Below, one piece after another: positions 5,157 through 60,230 of a DNA stretch of 64,000 bases. Under the pieces are notes generated by a model that was not told where the DNA came from, searched no databases, and was given only the letters and a program-made list of their open reading frames with translations. Source of the stretch: Escherichia coli (GTDB lineage: Bacteria; Pseudomonadota; Gammaproteobacteria; Enterobacterales; Enterobacteriaceae). Position 1 is the stretch's first letter; each line of letters begins with the position of its first letter. Location of the stretch: the NCBI RefSeq assembly GCF_044324785.1, contig NZ_CP172127.1, one strand, 5' to 3'. Position numbers and translations under genes: made by a program.

Positions 5157-7436
5157 ATGGATGACCAGTTAAAACAAAGTGCACTTGATTTCCATGAATT
5201 TCCAGTTCCAGGGAAAATCCAGGTTTCTCCAACCAAGCCTCTGGCAACGCAGCGCGATCTGGCGCTGGCCTACTCACCAGGCGTTGCCGCACCTTGTCTT
5301 GAAATCGAAAAAGACCCGTTAAAAGCCTACAAATATACCGCGCGCGGTAACCTGGTGGCGGTGATCTCTAACGGTACGGCGGTGCTGGGGTTAGGCAACA
5401 TTGGCGCGCTGGCAGGCAAACCGGTGATGGAAGGCAAGGGCGTTCTGTTTAAGAAATTCGCCGGGATTGATGTATTTGACATTGAAGTTGATGAACTCGA
5501 CCCGGACAAATTTATTGAAGTCGTCGCCGCGCTTGAACCGACCTTCGGCGGCATCAACCTCGAAGACATTAAAGCGCCAGAATGTTTCTATATTGAACAG
5601 AAACTGCGCGAGCGAATGAATATTCCGGTATTCCACGACGATCAGCACGGCACGGCAATCATCAGCACTGCCGCCATCCTCAACGGTTTGCGCGTGGTGG
5701 AGAAAAACATCTCCGACGTGCGGATGGTGGTTTCCGGCGCGGGTGCCGCAGCAATCGCCTGTATGAACCTGCTGGTAGCGCTGGGTCTGCAAAAACATAA
5801 CATCGTGGTTTGCGATTCAAAAGGCGTTATCTATCAGGGCCGTGAGCCAAACATGGCGGAAACCAAAGCCGCATATGCGGTGGTGGATGACGGCAAACGT
5901 ACCCTCGATGATGTGATTGAAGGCGCGGATATTTTCCTCGGCTGTTCCGGCCCGAAAGTGCTGACCCAGGAAATGGTGAAGAAAATGGCTCGTGCGCCAA
6001 TGATCCTGGCGCTGGCGAATCCGGAACCGGAAATTCTGCCGCCGCTGGCGAAAGAAGTGCGTCCGGATGCCATCATCTGCACCGGTCGTTCCGACTACCC
6101 GAACCAGGTGAACAACGTTCTTTGCTTCCCGTTCATCTTCCGTGGCGCGCTGGACGTTGGCGCAACCGCCATCAACGAAGAGATGAAACTGGCGGCGGTA
6201 CGCGCGATTGCAGAACTGGCCCATGCGGAACAGAGTGAAGTGGTGGCTTCAGCTTATGGCGATCAGGATCTGAGCTTTGGTCCGGAATACATCATTCCAA
6301 AACCGTTTGATCCGCGCTTGATCGTTAAGATCGCTCCTGCGGTCGCTAAAGCAGCGATGGAGTCGGGCGTGGCGACGCGTCCGATTGCTGATTTCGACGT
6401 CTACATCGACAAGCTGACGGAGTTCGTTTACAAAACCAACCTGTTTATGAAGCCGATTTTTTCCCAGGCTCGCAAAGCGCCGAAGCGCGTCGTTCTGCCG
6501 GAAGGGGAAGAGGCGCGCGTTCTGCATGCCACTCAGGAACTGGTAACGCTGGGGCTGGCGAAACCGATCCTTATCGGTCGTCCGAACGTGATCGAAATGC
6601 GCATTCAGAAACTGGGCTTGCAGATCAAAGCGGGCGTTGATTTTGAGATCGTCAATAACGAATCCGATCCGCGCTTTAAAGAGTACTGGACCGAATACTT
6701 CCAGATCATGAAGCGTCGCGGCGTCACTCAGGAACAGGCGCAGCGGGCGCTGATCAGTGACCCGACAGTGATTGGCGCGATCATGGTTCAGCGTGGCGAA
6801 GCCGATGCAATGATCTGCGGTACGGTGGGCGATTATCATGAACATTTTAGCGTGGTGAAAAATGTCTTTGGTTATCGCGATGGCGTTCACACCGCAGGTG
6901 CCATGAACGCGCTGCTGCTGCCGAGTGGTAACACCTTTATTGCCGATACTTACGTTAATGACGAACCAGACGCAGAAGAGCTTGCGGAGATCACCTTGAT
7001 GGCGGCAGAAACTGTTCGTCGTTTCGGTATTGAACCGCGCGTGGCTCTGTTGTCGCACTCCAACTTTGGTTCTTCTGACTGCCCGTCGTCGAGCAAAATG
7101 CGTCAGGCGCTGGAACTGGTCAGGGAACGTGCACCAGAACTGATGATTGATGGTGAAATGCACGGCGATGCAGCGCTGGTGGAAGCGATTCGCAGCGACC
7201 GTATGCCGGACAGCCCTTTGAAAGGTTCCGCTAATATTCTGGTGATGCCGAACATGGAAGCTGCCCGCATTAGTTACAACTTATTGCGCGTTTCCAGCTC
7301 GGAAGGTGTGACTGTCGGTCCGGTGCTGATGGGCGTGGCGAAACCGGTTCACGTGTTAACGCCGATCGCATCGGTACGTCGTATCGTCAACATGGTGGCG
7401 CTGGCTGTGGTTGAAGCACAAACCCAACCGCTGTAA
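5157..7436 (+). CDS. maeB: NADP-dependent malic enzyme (malic enzyme domain fused to a phosphotransacetylase-like domain)
   Basis: 759-aa [32 protein letters not shown]...; length and sequence match MaeB. Confidence 0.9.
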
Positions 7437-54445: not shown

Positions 54446-55648
54446 TTACAGCACCAGTGCTGCGATTGACGCAGACAGCACACTCACCAGGGTAGAGCCG
54501 TAAACCAGCTTCAGACCGAAGCGAGAAACCACGTTACCTTGCTCTTCATTCAGGCCTTTAACTGCACCTGCGATAATCCCGATTGAAGAGAAGTTAGCGA
54601 AGGAAACCAGGAACACAGAGATGATGCCTTCAGCACGCGGAGAGAGCGTGGAAGCAATTTTCTGCAGATCCATCATCGCAACGAACTCGTTGGAAACCAG
54701 TTTGGTCGCCATGATACTGCCCACTTGCAGTGCTTCACTGGAAGGAACACCCATCACCCATGCAATCGGATAGAAGATGTAGCCCAGGATGCCCTGGAAG
54801 GAGATGCTGTAGCCAAACCAGCCAGTCACGGTGGCAAACAGTGCGTTCAGCGCGGCGATCAGGGCGATAAAGCCGATCAGCATCGCGGCAACGATAATGG
54901 CAACTTTGAAACCTGCCAGAATGTATTCACCCAGCATTTCGAAGAAGCTCTGACCTTCGTGCAGGTTGGACATCTGGATGTTTTCTTCACTGGCATCAAC
55001 ACGGTAAGGGTTGATCAGCGACAGCACGATAAAGGTGCTGAACATGTTCAGTACCAGTGCCGCAACGACGTATTTCGGTTCCAGCATGGTCATGTATGCA
55101 CCAACGATGGACATCGACACGGTGGACATCGCCGTGGCAGCCATGGTGTACATGCGATTGCGGGAGATTTTGCCGAGGATATCTTTATAGGCAATAAAGT
55201 TTTCAGACTGACCCAGAATCAGGGAGCTGACGGCGTTAAAGGATTCCAGTTTGCCCATGCCGTTGACTTTGGAGAGCAGGAAACCAATTGCGCGGATAAT
55301 CACCGGCAACACGCGAATGTGCTGGAGAATACCGATCAGTGCAGAGATAAAGACGATTGGGCACAGCACTTTAAGGAAGAAGAATGCCAGGCCTTGATCA
55401 TTCATGCTACCAAAGACGAAGTTAGTCCCTTCGTTGGCAAATCCGAGCAGTTTTTCAAACATTTCGGAGAAGCCTTTCACGAAGCCTAAACCAACGTCGG
55501 AGTTCAGGAAGAACCACGCCAGTAACACTTCGATAACAAGCAGTTGAATAACATAACGGATACGAATTTTTTTGCGGTCGCTGCTTACCAGCAGTGCGAG
55601 AATCGCAACAACGGCAAGTGCCAGTACAAAATGAAGGACGCGGTCCAT
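54446..55648 (-). CDS. nupC: nucleoside:H+ symporter (CNT family)
   Basis: 400 aa from ATG at 55648 ([22 protein letters not shown]...). Confidence 0.9.
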
Positions 55649-55915
55649 ATTTGCTCCAAATATGAGGCAGGTTAAATTTCCGTGCACATTCTATGTAACA
55701 TGGTTAAGGAAAACGAGATCTGACACACACTATAATGACGTCCTGTGACAAGCTTCAAAAATAGTGAGCTGTCATACATTTCTGCTATGTTGTGTATGGA
55801 AGCTGAAAGTTATGTAAATGTGCTAACATTAAACATAACCATAACATTCAAGTCATCAATCTTTTCGTAGTCATAATCCTGGTCTATCAGAGAAATCACC
55901 ACAACCCATTTAAAT

Positions 55916-55934
55916 GAATTTGATAATCATTCTC
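55916..55934. promoter_or_regulatory. Fur box upstream of mntH
   Basis: gaatttgataatcattctc matches the Fur consensus GATAATGATAATCATTATC at about 15 of 19 positions. Confidence 0.5.
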
Positions 55935-55949
55935 GTTTGGCATAGCATG

Positions 55950-55971
55950 AAACATAGCAAAGGCTATGTTT
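55950..55971. promoter_or_regulatory. MntR operator upstream of mntH
   Basis: Palindrome aaacatagc aaag gctatgttt ending 13 nt before the mntH ATG. Confidence 0.5.
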
Positions 55972-55974
55972 TAG

Positions 55975-57222
<1,248 letters not shown>

Positions 57223-57250
57223 TTCAACTGGCGTCGTACCAGGCATCACT

Positions 57251-57285
57251 GGCGGATGCGGCGTAAAACGCCTTATCCGCCCTAC
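57251..57285. repeat. REP element (first of a BIME pair)
   Basis: ggcggatgcggcgtaaaacgccttatccgccctac. Confidence 0.65.
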
Positions 57286-57303
57286 GCGTTAAAGAGACGG
57301 TTT

Positions 57304-57340
57304 GTAGGCCCGATAAGACGCACTAGCGTCGCATCAGGCC
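57304..57340. repeat. REP element (second, inverted orientation)
   Basis: gtaggcccgataagacgcactagcgtcgcatcaggcc. Confidence 0.65.
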
Positions 57341-57363
57341 TTGTGCTCCATTGGCAAATGTGT

Positions 57364-57690
57364 TTAATGGCGGTGTCCATGTCCGCGGCCTTTTCCGCGA
57401 TGATCGTCACGATCGCGCCAGCCTTCACGATAGCCACGCTCATACGCTTTACGCTTATCCCAGCCACGATGGTAGCCATTATCATGACGCCACCAGCGGT
57501 TTTTACGCCATTCATAATTGCGATGCCAGTAGTCACGGTCGCGCCAGTGACCACCGTCCCAGTAATTACCGTAATGATCGCGATCGCCAATTTGTAATTT
57601 GATTGATGGCAGTAGGGTGATTTCACCTGCGTTTGCCGCAAGCGGGGTAAATGCCATCAGGGCGGCCGCCAGAAACAGTGACCTGAACAT
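57364..57690 (-). CDS. ypeC: secreted DUF2502-family protein, His/Arg/Trp/Tyr-rich
   Basis: 108 aa with signal peptide [21 protein letters not shown]; low-complexity C-terminus ...[17 protein letters not shown]. Confidence 0.75.
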
Positions 57691-57804
57691 TGTTATTCTC
57701 CTTCACGATCGAAGCCGTCAGCGGCCTGTTAACGCAATATTACGGGGAGGTAAAGCCCCGTATCATCGCCATAACTCTTAAATCATAAAGGAGAGCATTT
57801 TTTG

Positions 57805-59061
57805 CTAAACGTTATCGTGGGGTGGCTGTTGCTTCGGACGATTGACCATCATCATCGGCTTACCTGCTAATAACAGCCATGCCGGAAGCATGACGATACA
57901 GAGCAGCGGTAGCAATGTGGTATTGGGTACAACGACTGCCGCCATAAAAAGACTTAACCAGCCATCGCGTGTTACCACCAGCACGATGCCGAGAATAGCG
58001 CAGGAAACGGTTATTGCCGCTGGAACGGCGGGAACGTGCTCATGCAGCATCAACCCTAATGCCACGCCGACAAACACTGCCGGGAAGATTCGCCCACCGC
58101 GAAAGCCACTGGCGGCAGCAACGACCAGGGCGGCAAGTTTAATTACCGCCAGCAAAAAGTAATCGCTGGTGCTGAAAGCCTGATTTGCCACCATCTGCTG
58201 CATCTCATCCAGCCCTTTAAACAGCGAAACTGGTCCACCAATAACCCCCAGAATACCGAGAATAAATCCGCCAATACCCAGCACGAGCACCGGATTTTTC
58301 ATTTGATGCATCATCGCGTGCAACCGTGGTAAGCACCATACGGCGACCATCCCTGCTGCGATGGCAATCGCCGCGACAATTGCACCGCTGAGAATATCGG
58401 TCATTTGCATCTGTCCGTAATGCGCAATGGGCAGTGAAAAATGAGGATGGAAAAATAATCCGGTAGTTAGTGCACCAGCTGCTGCCGCCATTAACGGCGC
58501 AAAGAGACGATCCCATAGCGGAACTTCACTACTGCCATTTAAGGTTTGCGAAAATATCAACGCCGCTGCAACAGGTGTGCCAAACAGCGCGCCGATGGTT
58601 CCGGCAGAGGATAAAATAGTCCACTCCATTCGGTTGACGCGCGGTAACAGACGAGCGCCAATGGCAACCGCAAGGGCGATATTGACGGTCATGATCGGAT
58701 GTTCTGGCCCCAGGCTGACGCCACCAGCAAGACCAAGAATTAATGCTACGATAAGTCCTGGTAGCGCAGAGGGCGGAACTGGTGCGCCGATCAGCGGTTC
58801 ACAGGCGGGGTCTGGTCCGGCATGACCCTGGCTGAAACGGATAACCAACCCCACTGCAATACCCGTTAGCGTTAATATACCGATGATCCAGAGAGGTGAA
58901 TCCTGGGCTATCCCCAGAGTTCCCGGCAGTCGTTGCCAGAGCAAATTCTGTAATACCGAGGCGATTTTCATCACCACAATCAGAATAAGACTGGACGCAA
59001 TCCCAATTGCCACGGCGGGGAGCGATAATAACAACATGGTTCTGGCTCGCGGATGGAGCAT
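57805..59061 (-). CDS. yfeO: ClC-family putative ion channel/transporter
   Basis: 418-aa polytopic membrane protein with ClC-like GxGIP-type segments. Confidence 0.8.
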
Positions 59062-59264
59062 GTTCTATTCCTTATGCGGGGTCAGATACTTAGTTTGCCC
59101 AGCTTGCAAAAAGGCATCGCTGCAATTGGTGCTGAAACGATAAAGTAATTGTGTGACCCAGATCGATATTTACAGGGAGCCTGCCTTTCCGGCGTTGTTG
59201 TTATGCCCCCAGGTATTTACAGTGTGAGAAAGAATTATTTTGACTTTAGCGGAGCAGTTGAAGA

Positions 59265-60230
59265 ATGACAAAGTATGCATTAGTCGGTGATGTGGGCGGC
59301 ACCAACGCACGTCTTGCTCTGTGTGATATTGCCAGTGGTGAAATCTCGCAGGCTAAGACCTATTCAGGGCTTGATTACCCCAGCCTCGAAGCGGTCATTC
59401 GCGTTTATCTTGAAGAACATAAGGTCGAGGTGAAAGACGGCTGTATTGCCATCGCTTGCCCAATTACCGGTGACTGGGTGGCAATGACCAACCATACCTG
59501 GGCGTTCTCAATTGCCGAAATGAAAAAGAATCTCGGTTTTAGCCATCTGGAAATTATTAACGATTTTACCGCTGTATCGATGGCGATCCCGATGCTGAAA
59601 AAAGAGCATCTGATTCAGTTTGGTGGCGCAGAACCGGTCGAAGGTAAGCCTATTGCGGTTTACGGTGCCGGAACGGGGCTTGGGGTTGCGCATCTGGTCC
59701 ATGTAGATAAGCGTTGGGTAAGCTTGCCAGGCGAAGGCGGTCACGTTGATTTTGCGCCGAATAGTGAAGAAGAGGCCATTATCCTCGAAATACTGCGTGC
59801 AGAAATTGGTCATGTTTCGGCAGAGCGCGTGCTTTCTGGCCCAGGACTGGTGAATTTGTATCGCGCGATTGTGAAAGCCGACAACCGCCTGCCAGAAAAT
59901 CTCAAGCCAAAAGATATTACCGAACGCGCGCTGGCTGACAGCTGCACCGATTGCCGCCGCGCGTTGTCGCTGTTTTGCGTCATTATGGGCCGTTTTGGCG
60001 GCAATCTGGCGCTCAATCTCGGGACATTTGGCGGCGTGTTTATTGCGGGTGGTATCGTGCCGCGCTTCCTTGAGTTCTTCAAAGCCTCTGGTTTCCGTGC
60101 CGCATTTGAAGATAAAGGGCGCTTTAAAGAATATGTCCATGATATTCCGGTGTATCTCATCGTCCATGACAATCCGGGCCTTCTTGGTTCCGGTGCACAT
60201 TTACGCCAGACCTTAGGTCACATTCTGTAA
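59265..60230 (+). CDS. glk: glucokinase
   Basis: 321 aa [52 protein letters not shown]... Confidence 0.95.

Follow-up and report, generated by a model that had tools for sequence, protein, structure and literature searches.

The gene ypeC of Escherichia coli lies beside the manganese transporter gene mntH and encodes a small, apparently secreted protein with a His-rich tail, which raises the question of whether its product handles metals, as its position might suggest, or serves the cell envelope in some other way. An earlier note on this DNA, made from the letters alone, had described a YpeC-like open reading frame for a secreted, repetitive low-complexity protein, and had proposed a periplasmic metal-binding or stress role from the His-rich tail and from the Fur and MntR boxes upstream of the neighbouring mntH. 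We addressed the question in a window of 64,000 nucleotides (contig NZ_CP172127.1 of assembly GCF_044324785.1), considering the reading frame, its promoter and its neighbourhood together with published binding and expression data. The gene, a high-affinity MarA/SoxS target, is among those most strongly induced by disturbance of the outer membrane or of lipoprotein sorting in E. coli, and our search of the open-access literature found no function for it or for any other DUF2502 protein. A ligand for YpeC would fill a gap in the enteric envelope-stress response, which affects tolerance to antibiotics and antimicrobial peptides.

The ypeC gene and its protein family

The ORF list places the ypeC coding sequence at positions 57364 to 57690 of the minus strand, with an ATG start and 108 codons followed by a stop. 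Its product matches the Pfam family DUF2502 (PF10697) along the complete profile (positions 1-90 of 90), with 85.4 bits against a cut-off of 27 and E = 3.1e-24. No other Pfam family was found in the window protein or in 78 relatives, and NCBIfam holds no model that matches the product. The E. coli genome annotation for this ORF reads "ypeC: DUF2502 domain-containing protein YpeC", and with the family match (E = 3e-24) this shows that the name given in the earlier note was right.

All but two of 5426 complete E. coli genomes (5424) carry a segment of 678 bases around ypeC. Comparison of the first 58 codons with 16 other genera gave mismatch fractions of 0.14, 0.11 and 0.40 at the three codon positions, which indicates that the ypeC frame is under purifying selection and that the ORFs overlapping it in other frames are spurious. 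The same codon-position conservation and the presence of the gene in nearly all E. coli genomes rule out a spurious ORF at 57364..57690. The window contains no second DUF2502 gene. The neighbours of ypeC are nupC (54446-55687, minus strand), mntH (55984-57222, plus strand), which adjoins it, yfeO (57805-59061, minus strand), which lies upstream of it and encodes a CLC-type ion channel, and glk (59265-60230, plus strand). This order of nupC, mntH, ypeC, yfeO and glk is the annotated E. coli order, and is found in most of the approximately 78 genome loci that bear the gene.

DUF2502 is a small family. At 90 % identity it comprises 278 clusters, and a set of 1.84 billion representatives contains 85 clusters of it at 50 % identity. 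Its named members belong to Enterobacteriaceae, to Erwiniaceae (Pantoea) and to Yersiniaceae (Chimaeribacter, Rouxiella), with one betaproteobacterium, Jeongeupia, as an outlier. This phyletic range appears to match that of the Rcs system. One source labels a Pantoea member "Zinc ABC transporter substrate-binding protein", which is probably an artefact of its composition. The literature already describes the gene, its family and its regulatory inputs, and the identity of ypeC and its regulation as an envelope-stress gene can be stated with high confidence.

Export, composition and predicted fold of YpeC

Residues 1-21 of YpeC (57628..57690, minus strand) have the features of a Sec-type signal peptide, as judged by rules. 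The n-region is positive (R3), the h-region (residues 4-15) has a mean Kyte-Doolittle value of 2.05, and Ala occupies positions -3 and -1 of the predicted cleavage site, between ANA and GE; A19 and A21 are invariant across 15 genera. The N-terminus contains no twin-arginine motif and no Cys, and without a Cys there is no lipobox. These features back the earlier claim that the protein is secreted, and support a mature YpeC that is a periplasmic protein of 87 residues and about 11 kDa, predicted to be exported by the Sec route.

The mature protein consists of 18.4 % R, 14.9 % G, 11.5 % D, 10.3 % H, 9.2 % W and 8.0 % Y. Each of these residues is 1.9 to 7.6 times as frequent as in 32 long ORFs taken from the window, and together they account for 72 % of the sequence, against 23 % in those ORFs, while hydrophobic residues make up 8 % against 44 %. 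The calculated pI is about 10, and the net charge rises from +7.5 at pH 7 to +14 at pH 5.5. The strong compositional bias implied by the description of the protein as repetitive and of low complexity is thus present, but the repeats are not: the best alignment of one half of YpeC with the other scores 37, no better than shuffled sequences (42.7 ± 7.9), and internal repeats were rejected.

The low-complexity description also fails for residues 23-70 (57481..57624, minus strand), which instead form a position-specifically conserved domain, the DUF2502 core, delimited by its conserved columns and by AlphaFold2. After the signal peptide it carries the motif LPxxxLxIGDRDxxGxYWDGxxWRxxxWW, which is present in the window YpeC, and the region is near-invariant among Enterobacteriaceae. 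In an alignment of 78 sequences the columns P28, G35, D38, G41, Y43, W44, D45, G46, W49, R50 and W55 are invariant or conserved to at least 90 %, and the window YpeC has all of them; the folded core has no conserved His, Cys or Glu column in this alignment. The unit GxRDxxGxYWDGxxWR occurs twice in some distant DUF2502 members. AlphaFold2 with the 78 sequences gave pLDDT values of 81-90 over residues 31-70, with a helix at 52-58 and a hairpin at 59-68, and values below 50 over residues 73-108; with 15 sequences the picture was the same at lower confidence. YpeC is therefore predicted by the model to consist of a compact core of about 40-48 residues, rich in Trp, Asp, Gly and Arg, followed by a disordered cationic tail.

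This tail, predicted from the pLDDT values and from the family composition to comprise residues 71-108 (57367..57480, minus strand), is rich in Arg, Gly, Asp and His. Throughout the family its composition is kept while its sequence drifts, with mean contents of 14.5 % H, 17.1 % R and 14.6 % G, and 47 of 75 members have at least four His within the last 20 residues. Most of the DUF2502 members without four tail His look like frameshifted (metagenomic) predictions.

Two explanations other than the one we prefer arise from these properties. YpeC could be a hydrophilin or disordered-chaperone protectant, which would need no specific ligand to shield membranes or proteins of the periplasm under acid, osmotic or desiccation stress. 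Hydrophilins are recognized by a Gly content above 6 % and by high hydrophilicity, and YpeC has 14.9 % Gly, a GRAVY of -2.1 and more than a third of its length predicted to be disordered; its expression also rises together with that of osmB, yjbJ, spy and further stress proteins, and mildly on rapid acid treatment. However, the position-by-position conservation of residues 23-70, with invariant Trp, Asp, Gly and Arg and a confident predicted fold, is that of a specific domain, and we consider a ligand-free protectant distinctly unlikely.

The second is a periplasmic metal binder or buffer, in which the His-rich tail would chelate Ni, Zn, Cu or Mn as a sink or chaperone. The family-wide retention of His in the tail (mean 14.5 %, with the 47 of 75 members given above), the GHGHRH of the YpeC tail, the (GH)n stretches or His runs of relatives and the similar tail of YaaX, the E. 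coli paralogue, are all in keeping with such a function, and the zinc-transporter label of the Pantoea member would be too, were it not probably an artefact. The conserved His-rich tail fits metal binding and polyanion binding equally well. In contrast, the invariant residues of the folded core are P, G, D, Y, W and R, with no His, Cys or Glu among them.

Regulation of ypeC and its relation to mntH

Published work has shown that ypeC depends strongly on the Rcs envelope-stress phosphorelay. In an O157:H7 isolate with a disrupted rcsB, ypeC expression was 23.7-fold lower (PMC5343319), and a LolCDE inhibitor raised it 42- and 60-fold and induced osmB, bdm, the wca genes, rcsA and spy as well (PMC5105897). 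The second input is the mar/sox/rob system: MarA ChIP-seq in ETEC lists the site GCATTTTTTGCTAAA for ypeC (PMC5684230 Table 1), purified MarA binds this site at 0.3 μM, the lowest concentration tested (PMC5684230), and the gene is also a SoxS ChIP-exo target in K-12, as noted in the same work (PMC5684230). In Salmonella, SoxS ChIP-seq found the same ypeC site, in a class I promoter with a start determined by Cappable-seq (PMC10268841 Fig. S1). Lesser published signals are that ypeC belongs to a multi-stress co-expression hub, responds to conjugation and rises mildly on rapid acid treatment. The proposed stress role therefore stands for envelope damage, through Rcs, and for mar/sox/rob (PMC5343319, PMC5105897, PMC5684230, PMC10268841), but not for metal stress. 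We found no experiments on the YpeC protein itself in open-access full text, and no metal-responsive expression of ypeC (b2390) in open-access main texts.

A generic promoter scan gave nothing upstream of ypeC above its threshold of 9/12, and the promoter was located by phylogenetic footprinting together with the published Salmonella start site. Transferred by alignment from the Salmonella Cappable-seq data (PMC10268841 Fig. S1), the start inferred for the window strain is at 57728 on the minus strand, which gives a leader of about 37 nt. It is preceded by the -10 hexamer TAATAT (57737..57742, minus strand), which ends 8 nt before the inferred start and whose TAAnAT block is kept in most of 77 distinct orthologous upstream regions, and, across an 18-bp spacer, by a weak -35-like hexamer ATGATA (57761..57766, minus strand) that matches TTGACA in 4 of 6 positions. 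The Shine-Dalgarno sequence GAAGGAG (57698..57704, minus strand) lies 7 nt before the ATG and is kept in 20 genera. The gene has a weak sigma-70 promoter of its own, and the weak -35 and core elements would fit an activator-dependent one.

The spacer itself holds an inverted repeat, CGGGGC-TTTACC-TCCCCG (57743..57760, minus strand), which retains 5-6 of 6 pairs in most genera and is weaker in the Enterobacter group; in the Klebsiella indica locus both arms have changed, to CGGAGC/GCTCCG. Conservation extends from about -80 to the ATG across 20 genera despite a differing upstream gene, which is yfeO in Escherichia and elsewhere an aldo-keto reductase gene downstream of ipdC. The conserved blocks follow each other in the order TTTAGCAAAAA(A/G)TGC, GATTTA(A/G)GAGTT, the weak -35, the inverted repeat CGGGGC...GCCCCG, TAATAT and GAAGGAG.

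The first of these blocks is the reverse complement of the marbox GCATTTTTTGCTAAA, a MarA/SoxS/Rob site at 57795..57809 on the plus strand, which overlaps the yfeO stop codon and is kept in 20 genera. It is identical to the published 15-mer, matches the degenerate consensus AYnGCACnnWnnRYYAAAY in 12 of 14 positions, and is the only exact occurrence of GCATTTTTTGCTAAA in the window, where none is expected by chance. Relative to ypeC the site is in reverse orientation; it precedes the -35 and lies about 74 bp before the inferred start.

Between the marbox and the -35 lies a further block kept in 20 genera, GATTTAAGAGTT (57773..57784, minus strand), with an RcsB-type half-site TAAGA (57776-57780) centred near -50. 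The pattern T-N-R-G-A is found in all 58 aligned upstream regions, with TAAGA, TAGGA and TCGGA as the only variants. The consensus of the RcsB box is TN(G/A)GAN4TC(T/C)NA (PMC7913699); upstream of ypeC the best match to this full box is 6/8, which is at background level, and the second half-site TCYNA is absent at the N4 spacing and present at N5 in 8 of the 58 regions. Direct binding of RcsB to the ypeC promoter is plausible from the conserved half-site, but Rcs control could also be indirect or need a partner, since there is a half-site only and no full homodimer box.

We looked for metal-regulator sites in the same region. Upstream of mntH, an MntR palindrome without mismatch (16/16, 55951-55970) and a Fur-like box (15/19, 55916-55934) confirm the earlier observation that ypeC adjoins a gene with Fur and MntR boxes upstream, and these two sites served as positive controls for the scan. 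The check for Fur, MntR or OxyR motifs upstream of ypeC, which had been proposed in the earlier note, gave nothing above background: the best matches in 57691-57830 are 12/19, 9/16 and 10/20, respectively, and 13 %, 60 % and 52 % of the 140-bp segments of the window match equally well. The best Zur match in this region, 14/23, stands out only through its AT-richness and does not come near a genuine site.

The arrangement of the two genes offers no other connection. mntH ends at 57222 on the plus strand and ypeC at 57364 on the minus strand, so that the genes are convergent, with stop codons 141 bp apart, and there is neither a shared transcription unit nor a divergent promoter. Two REP-type elements on the minus strand (57201-57282 and 57307-57378, together 57201..57378) occupy this gap, and the second of them overlaps the last ypeC codons. 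They are sub-threshold matches to the REP-derived Rfam family naRNA4 (40.6 and 40.1 bits, E = 5e-5 and 7e-5), with an inverted repeat at 57251-57281 in the REP region, and were the only matches in an Rfam scan of 55600-59300, which gave no riboswitch or sRNA. About 1.8 kb separates the Fur and MntR boxes, which lie beyond mntH, from the ypeC promoter. A role drawn from the adjacency to mntH thus loses its basis, with convergent genes, REP elements between them and the boxes on the far side of mntH. ypeC appears not to be wired to the Mn and Fe regulators of mntH; the suggested Mn/Fe connection stems from gene order and is unsupported by the sequence.

The gene order itself extends to other families. 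ypeC and mntH are convergent in most of the approximately 78 loci and also in Pantoea and Chimaeribacter, but the entire block from glk through ypeC, mntH and nupC is syntenic. Several Citrobacter loci have no mntH within 4 kb, and other genomes have insertions between the two genes. The relatives elsewhere, yaaX and the Jeongeupia homologue, have neighbours other than mntH, and the Jeongeupia gene is not beside a metal gene. With a syntenic block, with exceptions and with relatives at other loci, adjacency is weak evidence for a shared function, and the position of ypeC beside mntH looks like inherited gene order. These observations also bear on the idea that YpeC is an accessory of MntH, for example a functional partner that delivers periplasmic Mn2+ to the transporter. 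The convergent arrangement in most loci and in two further Enterobacterales families is what speaks for it. Against this, synteny of the whole glk...nupC block means that adjacency carries little information, the Citrobacter loci and the insertions break the association, the convergent genes answer to unrelated regulators, and neither yaaX nor the Jeongeupia homologue is beside mntH, so that we regard such a partnership as extremely improbable.

For the metal binder or buffer, the reach of the mntH synteny to Pantoea and Chimaeribacter can be counted in favour, together with the tail. On the other side stand the results of the site scans, in which the ypeC upstream region showed no box for Fur, MntR or OxyR and at best a Zur-like match of 14/23, the convergent genes without a common promoter, the position of the Jeongeupia homologue, and the fact that all reported regulators of ypeC are regulators of envelope or xenobiotic stress. 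We therefore consider metal binding as the function of YpeC unlikely.

Possible role of YpeC and comparison with known systems

The best explanation as a whole is that YpeC is an exported envelope-stress protein, regulated by Rcs and mar/sox and acting through polyanion binding, a reading that we hold with slightly more belief than doubt. Envelope damage would fill the periplasm with a polycationic, aromatic-rich protein, which would bind an anionic component of the envelope through Arg, Trp and Tyr contacts. Candidate ligands would be periplasmic or surface glycans, peptidoglycan, and the head groups of phospholipids or LPS. The charge of the His-rich tail, and hence binding, may be set by periplasmic pH or by a bound divalent metal. 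An anionic ligand is favoured because the core has invariant Trp, Tyr, Asp and Arg, residues of the kinds that contact sugars and head groups, and the tail adds Arg and His. The binding step taken separately is drawn from composition alone, and as a mechanism it is tentative, possible but on balance doubtful.

A more specific form of the anionic-ligand reading would make DUF2502 proteins (YpeC, YaaX) a group of Enterobacterales-specific, Rcs-induced periplasmic "sticker" proteins, in which the core reads an envelope glycan and the tail condenses a polyanion. The core could recognize osmoregulated periplasmic glucans, cyclic enterobacterial common antigen, or strands of colanic acid or peptidoglycan, and the Arg/Gly/His tail could drive a pH- or metal-switchable condensation or cross-linking of an envelope polyanion. 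If this were true, a damaged envelope would be physically stiffened or re-sealed, and the His-rich tail would tie envelope stress to the pH or metal status of the periplasm. We regard this proposal as speculative and its being correct as improbable.

The closest relative for comparison is YaaX (b0005), which shares with YpeC the family, the signal peptide and the core motif, with 62 % identity over 65 residues. Its tail is likewise His-rich and basic, but has a Pro-rich PPPPP stretch followed by HHKKAPHDHHGGHG, whereas the YpeC tail is rich in RD and GW instead. The loci also differ, as yaaX is tail to tail with the stress gene yaaA and ypeC with mntH. YaaX is reported to belong to the RcsB regulon and to be induced by colicin M (PMC2731931, PMC3599342), and a Serratia DUF2502 promoter has been used as an Rcs reporter (PMC8470065).

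Among other proteins, OsmB, Bdm, Spy, Ivy, YmgD/YmgG and YjbJ resemble YpeC in being small, mostly exported and co-induced by the LolCDE inhibitor and by other envelope insults. They have no sequence or fold relationship with it, being lipoproteins or having helical-cradle or inhibitor folds, and they lack its Arg/Trp/His composition. At the level of the promoter, ypeC is similar to the class I mar/sox/rob promoters (marRAB, acrAB, fpr), which also have a reverse marbox upstream of the -35 and are bound by MarA/SoxS in vivo, but it differs from them in its additional RcsB dependence, in the TNRGA half-site and in the inverted repeat of the spacer.

The metal proteins ZraP, ZinT, ZnuA (with its His-rich loop) and RcnB are, as YpeC, exported and have a His-rich flexible segment. 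YpeC has no sequence similarity to them, and in contrast to them no metal-regulator site and no conserved His in its core. By composition only, YpeC resembles the Arg/Trp-rich cationic antimicrobial peptides and the RGG/aromatic "sticker" domains, since it is net positive with 18 % R, 17 % W plus Y and 15 % G, which suggests binding to membranes or polyanions. Unlike these peptides and stickers, YpeC is made by the cell for its own periplasm and has a folded core that is conserved.

The ypeC promoter and its upstream genes

The promoter of ypeC (57364-57690, minus strand), which encodes a small exported DUF2502 protein, is retained outside Escherichia despite the presence of different upstream genes. 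In Escherichia, the ypeC marbox (57795-57809), a site for MarA/SoxS/Rob, overlaps the stop codon of the upstream gene yfeO (57805-57807), and in most other genera the two genes are separated by about 3 kb. In Pantoea and Chimaeribacter, the position upstream of ypeC is taken by an ipdC-like gene for a TPP-dependent decarboxylase together with an aldo-keto reductase gene.

The promoter spacer, between the -35 and -10 elements, contains a conserved inverted repeat on the minus strand (CGGGGC-TTTACC-TCCCCG, 57743-57760), of which most genera retain five or six of the six pairs. Klebsiella indica carries a double change in this repeat (CGGAGC/GCTCCG), and the Salmonella version reads CAAAGC/GCTTCG. 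The repeat could be either a 3' hairpin of the transcript of the upstream gene or an operator.

The mntH-ypeC gap and the mntH start

The gap between the convergent genes mntH and ypeC is occupied by two REP-type elements, both on the minus strand (57201-57282 and 57307-57378), the second of which runs into the 3' end of ypeC, covering its stop codon and the codons just before it. Both were detected as sub-threshold matches to the Rfam family naRNA4, with scores of about 40 bits versus a gathering score of 59.5. At the other end of mntH, one RefSeq genome (locus L001, 2725-2769, corresponding to 55947-55991 of the window) is annotated with a 14-residue "hypothetical protein", which overlaps both the mntH start codon and the MntR box, and in the window the same frame runs through 15 residues with no stop codon inside those coordinates.

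Divergence and assembly labels

Only 45 complete E. coli genomes match the region around ypeC (57223-57900) at 99% identity or more, while 5376 others match it at 95-99%, and the YpeC protein of Escherichia whittamii is 100% identical to that of the window. The source of the window may be one of the less common lineages of Escherichia.

Enterobacterial ypeC loci were also observed in assemblies labelled Rhizobium wenxiniae (a 398-bp contig, 100% identical) and Chryseobacterium sp. 18061 (80% identical), most likely by contamination or mislabelling and not by horizontal transfer.

The DUF2502 motif and the two E. coli paralogues

In the distant DUF2502 proteins P0160, P0164, P0170, P0172, P0188 and P0194 the GxRDxxGxYWDGxxWR unit is doubled in tandem, which suggests that this motif of about 25 residues is the functional module. 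One source names the Pantoea stewartii member P0224 "Zinc ABC transporter substrate-binding protein", probably an annotation artefact due to its His-rich composition.

Each of the two DUF2502 genes of E. coli has a gene linked to peroxide or metal homeostasis as its tail-to-tail neighbour, a shared setting that, with only two cases, may be a coincidence: one pair is ypeC and the Mn transporter gene mntH (together 55984-57690 of the window), and the other is the paralogue yaaX and yaaA (together 5234-6459 of K-12, NC_000913.3), the annotated product of yaaA being a peroxide stress response protein.
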